From the IMG/VR virus record IMGVR_UViG_3300048574_000462, positions 32,662-96,661 of that record: a stretch of 64,000 nucleotides of DNA. One strand, given 5' to 3'. The notes beneath the pieces were generated by a model that saw nothing but the letters and a program-made list of their open reading frames with translations, searched no databases and had not been told where the DNA came from. Positions 28,962 through 32,869 of this stretch are shown here, in pieces. The DNA is from a virus. Numbering within the stretch: the stretch's first letter is position 1; every line of letters begins with the position of its first letter. A program made the position numbers and the translations under genes.

Positions 28962-29111
28962 CACTTACGCCACCTTGAATCGCGGAGTATATTATACTTG
29001 TCAGAACCATCGGAGCGGGAGAAATCCCGCTCCTTTCGTATCTATGATTTGCTTGACTTCCATCGCTTTTCGAGCGTATATGTCACTACCCAAAGCGAAG
29101 GAGGCATTTTC

Positions 29112-29975
29112 ATGAGAGTTGAAACTGGATTTACCACGCAGCGCAAGCTGCTCGCCCAGGCCATCGGCGAATGGCTGCACTTGGAACCGCACTACGACGG
29201 TGTCCCGCGCTGCACCTACAGCATCGGCCCCGTCAGGGTGGACAAGGACGCGGCAATCGTCACTGAAGATTTGGAAGCCTGGACCACGCTTAAGCCCTTC
29301 TTCCAGAACCACGGCTGGGCGGCGGAGGAACCAGCGCCCGAGCAACCCGCGCCTGATGCCGATTCAGAAGCTGCCGACGAATCCGCCGACATCGACGCCA
29401 TGGAGATCAGCGAACCCGCGCCTGGCCTGACGGTGGGGAGTCTTTTGAACTTGATCCACATGCTGTACAGCAAGCAGTACCTGTTCAACCGCATGACGGA
29501 ATCCGGAAGCCTTTTCATTTCCAAGAACCTGATCGACAGCCTGAAGGAGCACATGCCGGAAGACATGGCCGCCTTTCAACAGCGGCTGGCGGATTTCAAA
29601 GTCCGCGGCGAGCTGGACGGCTTCAGTTATGCAGACGGCAACGTCACGCTGCGCTACCCTTTCCACGCGGAACAGCCGATGCGCTGGACGACCTACGGCC
29701 TACTGACCGATAAGATCATCAAGACCGCGCTGGCGGCAACTCGTATCACCGCACAGGTACAGGAACCTGAGAACGAGAAGTACTTCGCGCGGTCATGGCT
29801 CCTGCGACTGGGCATGGGCGGAGCTGATTTCAAAGAAGAACGCCGCATCCTGCTGGGCGGGTTGAAAGGCCACGCAGCGTTTCCGAACGATGCCGCCGCG
29901 ACGAAGCACAAAGAGAAGTACGCCGTCCTGCGCCGGGAAGCGCATGCGGCTGACGGGAAGGAGGATGTCGAATGA
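29112..29975 (+). CDS. Conserved phage protein of the type often labelled virulence protein
   Basis: RK.L..AI......Y.G.P...Y.IG N-terminus and ENEKY..R.WLLRLG..G..FK..R..LL..L.G..AF C-terminus; own promoter near 29053. Confidence 0.75.
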   Translation: MRVETGFTTQRKLLAQAIGEWLHLEPHYDGVPRCTYSIGPVRVDKDAAIVTEDLEAWTTLKPFFQNHGWAAEEPAPEQPAPDADSEAADESADIDAMEISEPAPGLTVGSLLNLIHMLYSKQYLFNRMTESGSLFISKNLIDSLKEHMPEDMAAFQQRLADFKVRGELDGFSYADGNVTLRYPFHAEQPMRWTTYGLLTDKIIKTALAATRITAQVQEPENEKYFARSWLLRLGMGGADFKEERRILLGGLKGHAAFPNDAAATKHKEKYAVLRREAHAADGKEDVE

Positions 29976-30616: not shown

Positions 30617-30651
30617 ACGACAAAACCGCTCTCAAGTGAGCGGTTTTTCGT
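30617..30651. terminator. Bidirectional terminator between convergent operons
   Basis: AAAACCGCTC-tcaagt-GAGCGGTTTTT. Confidence 0.75.
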
Positions 30652-30677: not shown

Positions 30678-31124
30678 TCATCTTGGTGTACGCGCCAGGC
30701 TGCGCAGCAGCGCGGGCTCCAGGACCTTCTCGATTTCGGAGCGGAATCCCAGCGCTTGGTACGCCCGCCGGATGCCCTCGTAGTAATCCCGGGTCGGCGG
30801 CGCGATGCGCTTCTGGTTCATCAGGTAGATCATCCCCTTGATTTCAGAGCCGTCTGTCATGTGCACCGTGCGCTCCGCCTTGATGTAGTAGCTAGGGTAG
30901 CCTTCATAGCGGTCGAGCCGCTGTTCGTCCGCTTCGTTGATCTCCCAGACCGCCACTGGCACACGGGTGGGCGCGGCCTTGATTTGAGAGCGCTCAACCG
31001 TTGCGTGAAGGTAGAACTCCAGCCGCGCGCCGGGCAGGTACCCCATGCCGATAAGCCGGGCGCCCGGGCAGCGGTACGCCATCTGTTCCTGGACCATGTT
31101 GGAGCCGTAAGCGATGTACCTCAT
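30678..31124 (-). CDS. Gamma-glutamylcyclotransferase (AIG2-like)
   Basis: YIAYGSNM...QM..RCP and LDRYEGYP motifs. Confidence 0.9.
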   Translation of the reverse strand: MRYIAYGSNMVQEQMAYRCPGARLIGMGYLPGARLEFYLHATVERSQIKAAPTRVPVAVWEINEADEQRLDRYEGYPSYYIKAERTVHMTDGSEIKGMIYLMNQKRIAPPTRDYYEGIRRAYQALGFRSEIEKVLEPALLRSLARTPR

Positions 31125-31161
31125 TCGTGTTCCTCCTCAACTCGATTTGAAACCGGTATGC

Positions 31162-31386
31162 TCAGCGGCTCCGTACGATGGTCAGCTGGTACTCGCGGCC
31201 GTTCGGCAGGCTGATGACCAGCCCCTTGTCGTTCGTCATCACGCCGCCCTCAGCAAAGGTCTGCACCCGAAGGTTCTCCCAGCACACGTCCTCCGCTGTG
31301 CGGTAGTCGCCGTCCTGGGCGATCATCTCCCGCAGGCCGTCCTGCAACACCTCTTCGAAGTCCTGTTCGTTCTCGAGCTCGTACAT
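31162..31386 (-). CDS. Small acidic phage protein
   Basis: TF.E.GVMT.DKGLVI.L.NG.EYQLTIV; AAAGGAGG RBS. Confidence 0.75.
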   Translation of the reverse strand: MYELENEQDFEEVLQDGLREMIAQDGDYRTAEDVCWENLRVQTFAEGGVMTNDKGLVISLPNGREYQLTIVRSR

Positions 31387-31426
31387 CTGTGTGGTCCTCC
31401 TTTATATTTGGGAGCTCTACCAGCTT

Positions 31427-31484
31427 CCCGCGACCGGCGATGTGCCGGTTTCGGGCCGTAGCCAGCGGCCCATCGTCAGGCGGG
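31427..31484 (-). ncRNA. Type I hammerhead ribozyme (HH-B)
   Basis: CCCGC-CUGACGA-U-GGGCCG(cuggcua)CGGCCC-GAA-ACCGGC(acauc)GCCGGU-C^-GCGGG; predicted cut after 31432. Confidence 0.85.
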
Positions 31485-31490
31485 CTTGAT

Positions 31491-31886
31491 TCAAAAGCTG
31501 GTTGGGGCGAAAAGCGCGATGTAGTCGTGTGCAGCCTTGGATAGGGTTTTCAAGTCCGCGTCGGTCGGTTGGCCGTACCAGTCCGGCTTACCCTGGTACA
31601 CCCAGATGTGCGGGGTCTTCATGTCACCGCCAGGCGTACGAATGGAGGCGAAGTGGTCTTGATTCCGAAGCAGGAGTGTGTCGACCTTGCCCTCGGTGCG
31701 GTTCAGAATGGTGACCTGCAGGGCCTCGTATTTATCCGCTGTGCCGGTGGTGACGAACTCGATGCGCGCCCGGATTTGCTCGTCCAGCGGCAGGAATGCT
31801 GCGCGGCCGACGTAGACGGGGCTGGTTGATTTGAAAGCCGTGGTCCTGCCAGTGAGCGTCCGGAGCTGCTTTTCAAAGAAGTTCAT
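31491..31886 (-). CDS. Hypothetical phage protein (MNFFEKQL...)
   Basis: GAGGAGG RBS before ATG 31886; ILNR.EGKVD and PHIW motifs; the longer ORF-track start overlaps the amidoligase. Confidence 0.75.
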   Translation of the reverse strand: MNFFEKQLRTLTGRTTAFKSTSPVYVGRAAFLPLDEQIRARIEFVTTGTADKYEALQVTILNRTEGKVDTLLLRNQDHFASIRTPGGDMKTPHIWVYQGKPDWYGQPTDADLKTLSKAAHDYIALFAPTSF

Positions 31887-31925
31887 GGTGTTCCTCCTCA
31901 AAATGATTTCATAGCTTGCGGCCTT

Positions 31926-31978
31926 CCCGCGACGCGTTTTGCGTTTCGGCCCGGAGCCGCCGGGCCTCATCAGGCGGG
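31926..31978 (-). ncRNA. Type I hammerhead ribozyme (HH-A)
   Basis: CCCGC-CUGAUGA-GGCCCGG(cggcu)CCGGGCC-GAA-ACGC(aaaac)GCGU-C^-GCGGG; canonical core; predicted cut after 31931. Confidence 0.92.
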
Positions 31979-32002
31979 TGTGCTTGATTTGAAACCGGTG
32001 TG

Positions 32003-32869
32003 TCAGCTCGCCTGTCTCCAGGCAGCGTTGCCGGGCAGGTGCTTGAGCAGGTGTTCGCGGGCGGTCGCGAACTCGTCGCCGATGAACCCCAGCCGGAGCA
32101 GCCAGCACCGGAAGGTGTACTTGGGGTTGTCCGTCTCCGGGCGGCGTGGCGAGGCCGAACTTGATTCCAAAGCCTGGTGGGAAATCGCCAGGCTCAGTTG
32201 GATGAAAGCCTTGATTTCGCCCGCGTGGAGTGTGCTGTTGAAGGCCCGGAACTCGACGGTGCCCTTTTGGAACACCGAGTGGAGGTTCAAAAGGTGGTAC
32301 CGGCTGTGGTCGTAGTGCTCGTGGGCATGGCGCTCCCAGTTCCGATCGTCGTACCACACCCGGGCGATCTCGGGGAGGGTTTTCGGCTTGAGCCGGTTCA
32401 GCCTCGCGAGGAAGCCCGCGTCCACCGGCTGGCACCAGCGTGTGCGGCGTTCCGGCGAGATCTGCAGCGCCTGGGTCAGCAGGTCCTCCTTGGCGTTGAC
32501 GATGTTCACCAGATTTCGGAGCGTTTTCGGGGTGTGGCTTCCCAGCCCGATGTGCACGTGGATCCCGCAGCTCTCGTGTGCCTTGGCGCCGGCCCGGCGG
32601 AGCTTGCGCACCAGTTCCTGGACCGTCTCGATGTCCGCCCACCGGCAGATTGGGCTGACCAGCTCGGTGCGCTCCTCATACGGGCCGGCGATGCTGGCGT
32701 CCGAGACCAGCTTCCAAGGCCGGCCTTCCGGGTCGTACACCGCCCAGGTGTCGTAGCTCCCGCCCACGTGGGTGGGTCGGATGTCAAAGTGTGCGGCGAT
32801 GACCTCCGCGGCCTTCGCCCGGGTGATGCCGTTCATCTCGATTTCGATACCAAAGGTCTGGTCCTTCAT
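32003..32869 (-). CDS. Putative amidoligase (Amidoligase_2 family)
   Basis: FGIEIE, WKLVSDASI, ELVSP, SCGIHVH, RY..LNL and TVEFR.FN motifs. Confidence 0.92.
   Translation of the reverse strand: MKDQTFGIEIEMNGITRAKAAEVIAAHFDIRPTHVGGSYDTWAVYDPEGRPWKLVSDASIAGPYEERTELVSPICRWADIETVQELVRKLRRAGAKAHESCGIHVHIGLGSHTPKTLRNLVNIVNAKEDLLTQALQISPERRTRWCQPVDAGFLARLNRLKPKTLPEIARVWYDDRNWERHAHEHYDHSRYHLLNLHSVFQKGTVEFRAFNSTLHAGEIKAFIQLSLAISHQALESSSASPRRPETDNPKYTFRCWLLRLGFIGDEFATAREHLLKHLPGNAAWRQAS

Follow-up and report, generated by a model that had tools for sequence, protein, structure and literature searches.

Type I hammerhead motifs around a single gene in a gut-phage operon as candidate sites of transcript cleavage into separate messages

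Two type I hammerhead motifs, HH-A and HH-B, bracket a gene for a 131-aa protein on the minus strand of a provirus (Table 1). From the sequences of both elements and of their relatives, the reading that we favor, with reasonable but by no means full confidence, is that they are genuine and probably active pseudoknotted ribozymes, which would cut the operon RNA cotranscriptionally into separate, insulated messages. The elements lie 494 nt apart, on the same strand as the genes, within the window (the whole stretch of 64,000 nt that was analyzed). The provirus carries terminase, portal, and capsid genes, and this gene content bears out the phage setting given in a preliminary description of the DNA. 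The minus-strand accessory operon consists, in order, of an Ala-rich ORF and the genes for an amidoligase, the 131-aa protein, a 74-aa protein, and a γ-glutamyl cyclotransferase (GGCT), and the amidoligase stop codon lies 24 nt ahead of HH-A. No minus-strand promoter for the operon was found in a σ70 consensus scan.

Neither the 131-aa nor the 74-aa protein has a family in Pfam or PHROGs; homologues of the latter were found at L001, L002, L037, L063, and L108. The predicted structure of the 131-aa protein (pLDDT 93.5) consists of a helix, a seven-stranded sheet, and a second helix. A Foldseek search of this model against the PDB gave nothing better than E = 0.08, and VIA-align gave no clear fold match, the best Z score (6.9) being within the noise band and the matches being generic helix–sheet–helix proteins of the T3SS-chaperone/YbjN type.

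Table 1. Positions of the hammerhead elements and surrounding operon features, in window coordinates
Feature	Position	Strand	Basis or remark
Amidoligase gene (PF12224), upstream cistron	32003..32869	minus	E 6e-67
Leader-type motif GUUUCAAAUCAAG	31983..31995	minus	directly upstream of HH-A
HH-A, type I hammerhead	31926..31978	minus	sequence reading, descriptor scan, family covariance model
HH-A stem I	CCCGC 31978-74 with GCGGG 31930-26	minus	sequence reading
HH-A core CUGAUGA	31973-67	minus	sequence reading
HH-A stem II, 7 bp GGCCCGG/CCGGGCC	31966-60 with 31954-48	minus	
HH-A loop II CGGCU	31959-55	minus	
HH-A GAA	31947-45	minus	followed by A15.1-U16.1 pair
HH-A stem III ACGC/GCGU	31944-41 with 31935-32	minus	loop AAAAC
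HH-A C17	31931	minus	predicted cut 31931/31930
HH-A 3' tail	31914..31925	minus	GGCCG 31923-19 can pair with loop II as pseudoknot
Bracketed gene, 131 aa	31491..31886	minus	conserved family in Clostridia prophages
Leader-motif variant CUUUUGAAUCAAG	31485-31497	minus	directly upstream of HH-B; contains stop codon of 131-aa gene
HH-B, type I hammerhead	31427..31484	minus	sequence reading, descriptor scan, family covariance model
HH-B stem I CCCGC/GCGGG	31484-80 with 31431-27	minus	
HH-B core CUGACGA	31479-73	minus	one extra U after A9 at 31472
HH-B stem II, 6 bp GGGCCG/CGGCCC	31471-66 with 31458-53	minus	
HH-B loop II CUGGCUA	31465-59	minus	
HH-B GAA	31452-50	minus	
HH-B stem III, 6 bp ACCGGC/GCCGGU	31449-44 with 31438-33	minus	
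HH-B C17	31432	minus	predicted cut 31432/31431
HH-B 3' tail	31410..31426	minus	AGCUGG 31425-20 can pair with loop II as pseudoknot
74-aa acidic protein gene	31162..31386	minus	first cistron of predicted third cleavage product
γ-Glutamyl cyclotransferase (AIG2-like) gene	30678..31124	minus	last cistron
Terminator-like hairpin, 10 bp + T-rich run, operon end	30622..30647	minus	consensus scan only

Direct reading of the sequence confirmed the two complete minus-strand type I hammerheads with GUC sites of the preliminary description. The core strand C3-U4-G5-A6-N7-G8-A9 is present in both elements, and all core nucleotides, the A15.1–U16.1 pair, and the GUC (an N-U-H triplet) are intact. Both follow the order stem I 5′ strand, core, hairpin II, GAAA, hairpin III, UH, and stem I 3′ strand, with stem I open and stems II and III closed by loops, as in type I. 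The minimum free-energy structure predicted for each element alone is the three-way-junction hammerhead fold (−26.1 kcal/mol for HH-A and −29.8 kcal/mol for HH-B). Because C17 sits at 31931 in HH-A and at 31432 in HH-B, cleavage is predicted after these positions, the same cuts as originally proposed. They would leave 5′ UTRs of 44 nt (HH-A) and 45 nt (HH-B), close to the expected 45 nt or so, with strong ribosome-binding sites (GAGGAGG and AAGGAGG, respectively), and the message of the 131-aa gene would be freed as a unit of its own, a middle fragment of 499 nt (31930–31432), in line with the original suggestion.

A descriptor scan of the whole 96,661-nt provirus record returned exactly two sites, HH-A and HH-B, where first-order Markov simulations gave a chance expectation of 0.033 loose matches per record and no strict match in 150 runs. 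The Rfam search, which had been put forward as a check, did not turn out in favor of the elements: there was no match in the whole window at the gathering threshold and no hammerhead match on 1 kb at E ≤ 10. In an 86-nt search, HH-A scored 18.6 bits against RF00163 (Hammerhead_1), below the cut-off of 34, and HH-B had no Rfam hammerhead match at all. RF00163 shares topology and core with the two elements, and HH-A aligns to it end to end (positions 1–45 of 45), but this 45-position model does not accommodate the greater stem length, the U that follows A9, or the tail of the pseudoknot in the HH-A/HH-B family. A covariance model (R1) built from 40 independent phage hammerheads, with the window and its close relatives left out, gave 69.0 bits for HH-B (E = 2e-16) and 52.4 bits for HH-A (E = 7e-12), the next best match in the window having an E-value of 0.27. 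Because the family model gives such scores, we read the Rfam failure as a probable limit of the RF00163 model and not of the elements.

HH-A and HH-B belong to a large family in phages of gut Clostridia, with more than 180 relatives in gut-phage contigs, in which the changes in the stems are compensatory and loop II pairs with its cognate 3′ tail. In the family alignment (A3), 96.7% of the cells are paired, compared with 76.9% after shuffling and 32 to 44% when the partners are slid, and double changes number 341 versus 95. Among 121 matches picked by core and stem I alone, stems II and III are both uninterrupted over at least 4 bp in 75%, versus 1.1% with shuffled interiors. The earlier proposal that these stems are selected for pairing is thus borne out at the level of the family. 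Stem I, CCCGC/GCGGG, is indeed identical in HH-A and HH-B, as had been noted, but it is a feature of the wider family and not special to the pair. We rejected the notion of a universally conserved stem I as a hallmark of this pair, which the first search pattern had itself imposed; once the pattern no longer fixes it, stem I co-varies (CCCAC/GTGGG, CCTGC/GCAGG, and others), with CCGC/GCGG in 78 of 140 matches and the remainder co-varying.

The extra U of HH-B had been noted in the preliminary description. The nucleotide is there, but it is no oddity, because 74 of 117 relatives carry it after A9, which makes it the usual state in the family. According to two later papers (PMC3705267, PMC1636495), De la Pena and Flores (2001) described an extra nucleotide between A9 and G10.1 in the CChMVd (+) hammerhead, the same core position as in HH-B, and trans-cleavage became 3- to 4-fold faster when this additional A was replaced by U. 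As presented there, the viroid ribozyme is of type III with an A, whereas the phage family is of type I with U in the majority. An extra U there is known to be tolerated and can even be beneficial.

In both elements, loop II can pair with the tail 3′ of stem I, CGGCU with GGCCG in HH-A and CUGGCU with AGCUGG in HH-B, the latter with two G–U pairs. Since the register of the tail differs between subclasses, this pseudoknot was assessed by comparing cognate with noncognate pairs instead of by column-wise covariation counts. Across the family, the cognate helix between loop II and tail has a mean of 4.12, compared with 3.72 ± 0.07 for noncognate pairs and 3.37 ± 0.07 for shuffled tails, an excess of approximately 6 and 11 SD, respectively. 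The pseudoknot first suggested for the two elements is thereby made probable, and Perreault et al. (PMC3088659) showed by experiment that the contact is required in such hammerheads. Some orthologues are in decay, with a 4-nt deletion of stem III and a U16.1-to-C change at L001 and a mismatched stem I at L002; U4C cores occur in several relatives. Cleavage at a given site would therefore seem dispensable in some lineages.

The tails can also pair with what is left of stem I after cleavage. In HH-A, CCGC (31921–31918) can re-pair with GCGG (31930–31927) in a 5′-terminal hairpin of the 3′ product (−7.3 kcal/mol), a pairing that is mutually exclusive with the pseudoknot. In HH-B, AGCUCCC (31416–31410) can pair with GGGA(A)GCU (31429–31422) in a 5′-proximal hairpin (−10.1 kcal/mol), downstream of which lie an AAAUA leader and the ribosome-binding site. 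For the initial 32 nt of the 3′ product, the folding energy across 182 hammerheads is −6.39 kcal/mol, compared with −4.24 ± 0.13 kcal/mol when shuffled, and at least three of the first five nucleotides are paired in 85%, compared with 63 ± 3% in shuffled and 39% in upstream control sequences. The product helix is specific to the cognate stem I (4.43 versus 3.73 ± 0.09), and compensatory examples are visible among relatives. These statistics are significant but modest in size, and the tests are not fully independent because the sequences are related and GC-rich.

Taken with the pseudoknot, this hairpin suggests how processing might proceed. During transcription, each hammerhead would fold, with stem I closing and loop II pairing with the tail, and would cut after its GUC, so that the polycistronic RNA would become three messages. 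The upstream pieces would end in a compact ribozyme with a 2′,3′-cyclic phosphate. The downstream pieces would begin with a 5′-OH, and the former stem I strand would re-pair with the nearby downstream copy of the other strand, yielding a 5′-terminal hairpin that is immediately followed by an A/U-rich leader and then a strong ribosome-binding site. Through this switch in pairing, the products would come free and the cut could not be reversed; the new 5′ end would be shielded, and each gene would have a defined 5′ UTR of one kind, regardless of the sequence that precedes it in the operon. As an outcome, the enzyme genes and the small cargo gene could be independently stable and translated.

We give roughly even chances to the narrower proposal that the co-varying mimic of stem I is a product trap and 5′-end protector, so that the units would act as natural insulators of the RiboJ type for mobile phage cassettes. 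RiboJ is a hammerhead followed by a 23-nt hairpin ahead of the ribosome-binding site; it normalizes the 5′ UTR, and mRNA that stays uncleaved turns over more quickly (PMC7536230). HH-A and HH-B both have this layout, that is, hammerhead, cut site, a hairpin straight after it at the prospective new 5′ end, and then the ribosome-binding site, and in both systems cleavage would strip off the upstream context and leave a defined 5′ UTR. RiboJ was engineered from a type III satellite-RNA hammerhead with the hairpin as an added part, whereas the hairpin of the phage units reuses the 3′ strand of stem I and co-varies with it; the likeness is a functional analogy only.

The position of the elements is conserved. 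Among 40 testable related loci selected by protein alone, 32 have a hammerhead starting within 100 nt after the amidoligase gene, and 20 of those 32 have a second one 350 to 900 nt further on. The gene in the bracketed slot varies from phage to phage, and phage PV036419.1 in GenBank has a two-hammerhead bracket of the same kind around an unrelated gene. At many related loci the number of hammerheads is not two but one, or three to seven, and arrays of up to six to eight copies occur in cassette regions. Here, as in relatives, phage genes are flanked by clusters of at least two hammerheads in the orientation of the genes. A tie between the bracket and the 131-aa family was considered and rejected: R1 hammerheads were found only at the 8 closest of 63 genome loci, and an Rfam search of 20 of the remaining loci of this family revealed no other ribozyme class.

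Such exchange of cargo, together with the arrays, could also mean that the ribozyme of about 55 nt and the leader motif serve mainly as a patch of DNA homology for swapping small genes, with cleavage secondary or the ribozyme a selfish passenger. Stem I, core, and tail do provide about 25 near-identical nucleotides common to many phages, and the hammerheads have leader-type motifs on their flanks in the manner of direct repeats. We nevertheless consider this unlikely. Stems II and III vary freely yet remain paired while the catalytic core is almost invariant, which points to selection on the RNA fold and not on DNA identity; moreover, pseudoknot and product hairpin co-vary, all copies are co-oriented with the genes, and the leader by itself, of which there are also copies lacking a hammerhead, could serve recombination equally well.

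Slightly less probable, in our judgment, is a coupling to translation, in which folding of the hammerhead would depend on a ribosome that terminates there, or on the tail pairing instead with the end of the upstream gene, so that the cut reports translation of that gene. Of 160 family members, 127 have the upstream stop codon between −10 and +9 nt relative to the beginning of stem I, and 59 have it inside the ribozyme (consistent with the UGA of the core itself); the stop codon of the 131-aa gene lies 6 nt ahead of HH-B. Such tight spacing may, however, be mere compaction of phage genomes. At HH-B, CCAGCUU in the last codons (31501–31495) could pair with AAGCUGG of the tail (31426–31420), competing with the pseudoknot. 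As a general lock, this pairing was rejected, being confined to HH-B and its orthologues: across the family, the tail and the 25 nt upstream of the element show no pairing signal (4.41, versus 4.32 ± 0.07 shuffled and 4.42 noncognate), and HH-A, which is separated from its upstream gene by 24 nt, lacks this pairing. The hammerhead fold is, in addition, by far the most stable local structure predicted and should form before the ribosome arrives.

The middle piece would have the 3′ strand of HH-A stem I at its 5′ end and the whole of HH-B at its 3′ end and, because CCCGC/GCGGG is common to both, its ends could rebuild a nicked hybrid hammerhead. The preliminary description had accordingly raised circularization, and sealing of the 499-nt piece by the reverse reaction or by host RtcB would yield a translatable circular mRNA, of a sort that is not known from DNA phages. 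The pairing of the hybrid ends is predicted to be as stable as the cognate ones (−20.3 versus −20.6 and −19.3 kcal/mol), and the ends, 5′-OH and 2′,3′-cyclic phosphate, are chemically compatible. The layout is formally that of type I hammerhead repeats and retrozymes, which give circles (PMC6765202), and in viroids, satellite RNAs, and retrozymes tandem co-oriented hammerheads likewise excise a unit with these termini whose ends can rebuild a nicked ribozyme. We regard this outcome as highly improbable, however. The conserved 5′-terminal hairpin would sequester the strand required for end-joining, and the provirus record (96.6 kb) encodes no RtcB ligase. The shared stem I is the commonest in the family and also occurs in single, unpaired hammerheads; being nearly universal, it would make any two hammerheads of an array mutually compatible, and the loci with one or three to seven copies do not suit a scheme built on pairs. 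Unlike the circular-RNA systems, HH-A and HH-B are not copies of one repeat, since stems II and III differ, the unit is a cistron for a protein within the operon of a DNA phage, and no replicase, reverse transcriptase, or ligase is nearby. Perreault et al. had themselves raised the idea of circular or spliced products for comparable arrays, sought them, and detected none (PMC3088659).

That both elements are inactive chance look-alikes or dead relics is hardly credible: the missing Rfam matches at threshold and the visibly degenerate orthologues would fit, but the low chance expectation, the core nucleotides, A15.1–U16.1 pair, and GUC kept in both copies, the family-model E-values, and the position conserved in 32 of 40 independent loci all speak against it.

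Ribozyme-bracketed prophage genes as such were already described in 2011, and the present locus is a good but ordinary example. The paper by Perreault et al. in PLoS Comput Biol (PMC3088659) describes prophage hammerhead clusters flanking single genes or short blocks, with several co-oriented copies within a few kilobases, flanking genes of varying identity, and an active fold stabilized by a pseudoknot; tandem prophage hammerheads cleaved both in vitro and in Escherichia coli, and the proposed role was likewise to cut long phage transcripts into gene-length mRNAs. The operon here differs from those clusters in its amidoligase and GGCT genes and its host group, gut Clostridia of the Christensenellales type. 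The amidoligase slot and the product hairpin mimicking stem I are added here, the passages searched in the 2011 paper holding no mention of either. A 2019 review considered the role of bacterial and phage hammerheads unproven and called for more work (PMC6765202). The present locus does not settle this role, but it is a compact test case, a defined operon in which two consensus ribozymes enclose a single small gene.

Another self-cleaving element of bacterial mRNA, the glmS ribozyme, offers a comparison by analogy, as it too leaves a downstream product with a 5′-OH, the fate of which sets expression. In work by Collins et al. from 2007, this product was reportedly found to be degraded by RNase J1 in Firmicutes. 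The glmS ribozyme is ligand-dependent and destabilizes its message, whereas the phage units have no evident ligand pocket, and their conserved 5′ hairpin suggests protection and not decay.

For annotation, the results mean that the Rfam hammerhead models miss a large gut-phage subfamily of type I with a U after A9 and a tail pseudoknot, and pipelines therefore under-count such hammerheads. For the phages themselves, the slot after the amidoligase gene appears as a conserved, ribozyme-bounded position with exchangeable cargo, and the co-varying product hairpin would give its ribozymes a concrete mechanism, namely product release, protection of the 5′ end, and a standard 5′ UTR, by analogy with synthetic insulators.

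Read on the minus strand, both intergenic regions around the ORF at 31491–31886 contain one complete hammerhead, referred to as HH-A and HH-B (see table). This reading bears out the preliminary description with respect to the cut sites, the 5′ UTRs of about 45 nt with GAGGAGG and AAGGAGG, the excised unit of 499 nt, and the proposed pairing, in both elements, of loop II with the tail, i.e., the nucleotides directly 3′ of stem I. HH-A and HH-B were the only matches in a descriptor scan of the 96,661-nt record, for which the chance level, derived from sequences simulated with matching dinucleotide composition, is 0.033 loose matches per record; none as good as HH-A or HH-B appeared among 150 such simulation runs. 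When each element was folded alone, the minimum-energy structure was the hammerhead junction. HH-A and HH-B are real hammerheads of type I, are probably active as ribozymes, and occupy a position in the operon that is conserved.

Coordinates of the hammerheads, their variants, and associated motifs. L numbers denote related loci collected for comparison.
Feature	Locus	Coordinates	Strand	Description
HH-A	window	31978-31926	minus	CCCGC, CUGAUGA, 7-bp stem II, loop CGGCU, GAA, stem III ACGC/GCGU, C17 at 31931, GCGGG
HH-B	window	31484-31427	minus	stem I as HH-A, CUGACGA + one U (31472), 6-bp stem II, loop CUGGCUA, GAA, 6-bp stem III, C17 at 31432, GCGGG
Leader-type motif	window	32160-32172, 31983-31995, 31825-31837, 31485-31497, 31141-31153, 30978-30990, 30837-30849	minus	
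Terminator-like hairpin	window	30622-30647		end of minus-strand accessory operon
U4-variant copies	L037	2909-2973		three loci in all
U4-variant copies	L034	860-928, 1784-1852, 2999-3065		
U4-variant copies	L077	2316-2385		
Bulged-A stem II variant	L001	2907-2974		
Bulged-A stem II variant	L063	5967-6036		
Bulged-A stem II variant	L249	3241-3306		
Six-to-eight-copy arrays	L193 (uncultured Lachnospiraceae MAG), L053, L034, L070, L080, L190			

The Rfam check proposed in the preliminary description gave no match at the gathering score. A 1-kb Rfam search had no hammerhead match at E ≤ 10; in an 86-nt search, HH-A reached 18.6 bits against RF00163 (cut-off 34), and HH-B had no Rfam match. Because this check failed, relatives were gathered by direct search with a pattern fixing the core and stem I only, which yielded at least 114 IMG/VR contigs, many of which, among the matches listed, carry 2 to 6 hammerhead copies within a few kb. 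A covariance model (R1) built from 40 of these relatives, leaving out the window and its close relatives, scored 69.0 bits (E = 2e-16) on HH-B and 52.4 bits (E = 7e-12) on HH-A, with nothing below E 0.27 in the rest of the window. The Rfam 15 hammerhead models miss a large gut-phage subfamily (type I, with a U after A9, a tail pseudoknot, and longer stems), which standard annotation will leave unmarked.

Stems II and III, both contiguous and 4 bp or longer, were present in 75% of the 121 unique matches listed, chosen on core and stem I alone, versus 1.1 ± 0.9% with shuffled interiors. In a 145-member model alignment, 96.7% of cells were paired, compared with 76.9% after shuffling and 32–44% with partners slid, and double-sided changes numbered 341 versus 95. 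A MAFFT alignment, unfitted to the model but with members preselected by a pairing descriptor, gave the same picture. Stem I had seemed invariant because the first search pattern fixed it; this idea was rejected, as a pattern without stem I gave CCGC/GCGG in 78 of 140 and compensatory variants in the rest. Pairing of loop II with its own 3′ tail scored 4.12, versus 3.72 ± 0.07 for other tails and 3.37 ± 0.07 for shuffled tails, and clear examples of compensatory loop II/tail changes exist among the relatives. The extra U after A9 was found in 74 of 117 relatives (among the matches listed); in a viroid hammerhead, an extra U at this position made cleavage faster (PMC3705267).

Several otherwise well-formed relatives have U4 of the core replaced by C or, in one case, A (CCGAYGA, CAGACGA); such copies may be inactive or may represent a natural core variant. 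In a recurrent stem II variant, CUGACGA is followed by G, a bulged A, and a helix (G10.1–C11.1 closing pair), replacing the single extra U. Among HH-B orthologues, L001:3403-3468 lacks 4 nt of stem III and has U16.1 changed to C, whereas in L002:1855-1924 stem I contains a C–A mismatch and the 5′ UTR has gained a 15-nt hairpin. Close relatives thus show decay of the downstream ribozyme.

The record is an IMG/VR provirus with genes for DUF2800, family A polymerase, VapE, SNF2, ParB-methylase, large terminase, portal, ClpP protease, and HK97-type capsid. Both hammerheads are part of a short accessory operon on the minus strand, comprising an Ala-rich ORF, an amidoligase (PF12224), HH-A, the 131-aa gene, HH-B, a gene for a 74-aa acidic protein, and gamma-glutamyl cyclotransferase (GGCT). 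Synteny is shared with the nearest GenBank relative, Christensenellales phage NatCom_6392 (PV036419.1, Ca. Heliusvirales), for which GenBank annotates no ribozymes; R1 detected two hammerheads in this phage, bracketing the gene after the amidoligase, and that gene is unrelated to the 131-aa protein. In an unbiased position test using 80 amidoligase loci selected by protein alone, 40 testable loci had 51% identity or more; in 32 of these, a hammerhead started within 100 nt after the amidoligase, and 20 of those 32 had a second one 350–900 nt further on; hammerheads were found in none of 35 loci of the ~40%-identity amidoligase clade. At six loci (L252–L256 and L283), a hammerhead some 80–90 nt upstream of the amidoligase start leaves the amidoligase itself bracketed; the window has none just upstream of this gene. 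The cargo between amidoligase and GGCT varies by locus, and members of the 131-aa family are encoded in 63 Clostridia genomes, with hammerheads only at the 8 closest members; the ribozymes are thus tied to the operon slot rather than to the gene. The 131-aa protein has a confident predicted fold (pLDDT 93.5), for which structure comparisons revealed no convincing relative.

Elsewhere, one hammerhead lies between nearly every small-gene pair, in arrays of six to eight within 3–5 kb. On the plus strand of the window, a 325-aa ORF (28998-29975) has ~60 C-terminal residues resembling the amidoligase C-terminus (~40% identity, tblastn), and the two genes form a convergent pair in most related loci.

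The upstream ORF stop ends −10 to +9 nt from the start of stem I in 127 of 160 family members (182 members, loci L004–L185) and falls inside the ribozyme in 59 members, where its position is the one predicted for use of the core's own UGA (in CUGAnGA) as stop codon. With the stop codon at or inside the ribozyme, terminating ribosomes must sit on it. In the window, the upstream stop codon precedes HH-A by 24 nt and HH-B by 6 nt. Pairing of the upstream gene end with the tail as a general “lock” was rejected, there being no family-level signal; HH-B has a 7-bp pairing option of this kind.

A motif, (G/C)UUUCAAAUC(A/G)AG, forms a cluster that has the orientation of the operon (the window contains 10 matches to this 13-mer versus 2.3 expected), and the motif also occurs in L034 (12 copies in 4.7 kb), L057, and L108. 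In related cassettes, it stands just before the AAGGAGG of many small genes, whether or not a hammerhead is present, and in several loci copies flank the hammerhead like direct repeats; it resembles a translation leader, or a boundary between cassettes, that these genes have in common. The same words recur at window 31825-31837, where GCUUUCAAAUCA encodes TAFKS, a nearly invariant peptide of the 131-aa family. Since a 53%-identical homologue (L080) has exactly the same TAFKS-coding nucleotides, constraint may act on RNA or DNA besides protein.

After the cut, the former 3′ strand of stem I can re-pair with a nearby downstream copy of the 5′ strand, a feature absent from the preliminary description. 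The resulting product hairpins are GCGG-GAAGG-CCGC (−7.3 kcal/mol) for HH-A and GGGA(A)GCU-GGUAG-AGCUCCC (−10.1 kcal/mol) for HH-B. The hairpin recurs family-wide and tracks changes in stem I (GTGGG..CCCAC, ATAGC..GCTAT, CGGGAA..TTCCCG, GGAAAC/GTTTCC), and the product helix shows specificity for the cognate stem I. Across 3′ products of 182 unique hammerheads, folding of the leading 32 nt gave −6.39 kcal/mol versus −4.24 ± 0.13 when shuffled, and three or more of the five leading nt were paired in 85%, versus 63 ± 3% for shuffled and 39% for control sequence. The HH-A hairpin and pseudoknot are mutually exclusive because both use the same nucleotides. We infer that the hairpin is a post-cleavage switch. 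Before the cut, the three-way junction would be favored; afterward, stem I would be no more than an intermolecular helix and the intramolecular hairpin would win, releasing the products and capping the newly made 5′ end immediately before the A/U-rich leader and ribosome-binding site.

The preliminary description had raised circularization of the excised 499-nt piece through RtcB, which now seems very improbable. The ends could pair as well as cognate halves, but the conserved product hairpin occupies the strand required for joining, the provirus record encodes no RtcB, and arrays hold one to eight ribozymes rather than pairs; the stem I common to HH-A and HH-B is simply the commonest in the family.

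Perreault et al. 2011 (PMC3088659) describe hundreds of bacterial hammerheads near prophage genes, the pseudoknot as the tertiary contact, verified by mutation, and cleavage by three prophage arrays in vitro and by one in E. coli; circular or spliced products were proposed and looked for there, and were undetected. A 2019 review still called the role of bacterial and phage hammerheads unproven (PMC6765202), and a full-text literature search for hammerhead plus amidoligase found no paper. This kind of system is already known, and, relative to those prophage arrays as described, the amidoligase slot and the product hairpin are two modest additions. The layout of hammerhead plus hairpin is that of the synthetic insulator RiboJ, which normalizes the 5′ UTR (PMC7536230), and the most likely mechanism is segmentation of the transcript with insulated 5′ ends.
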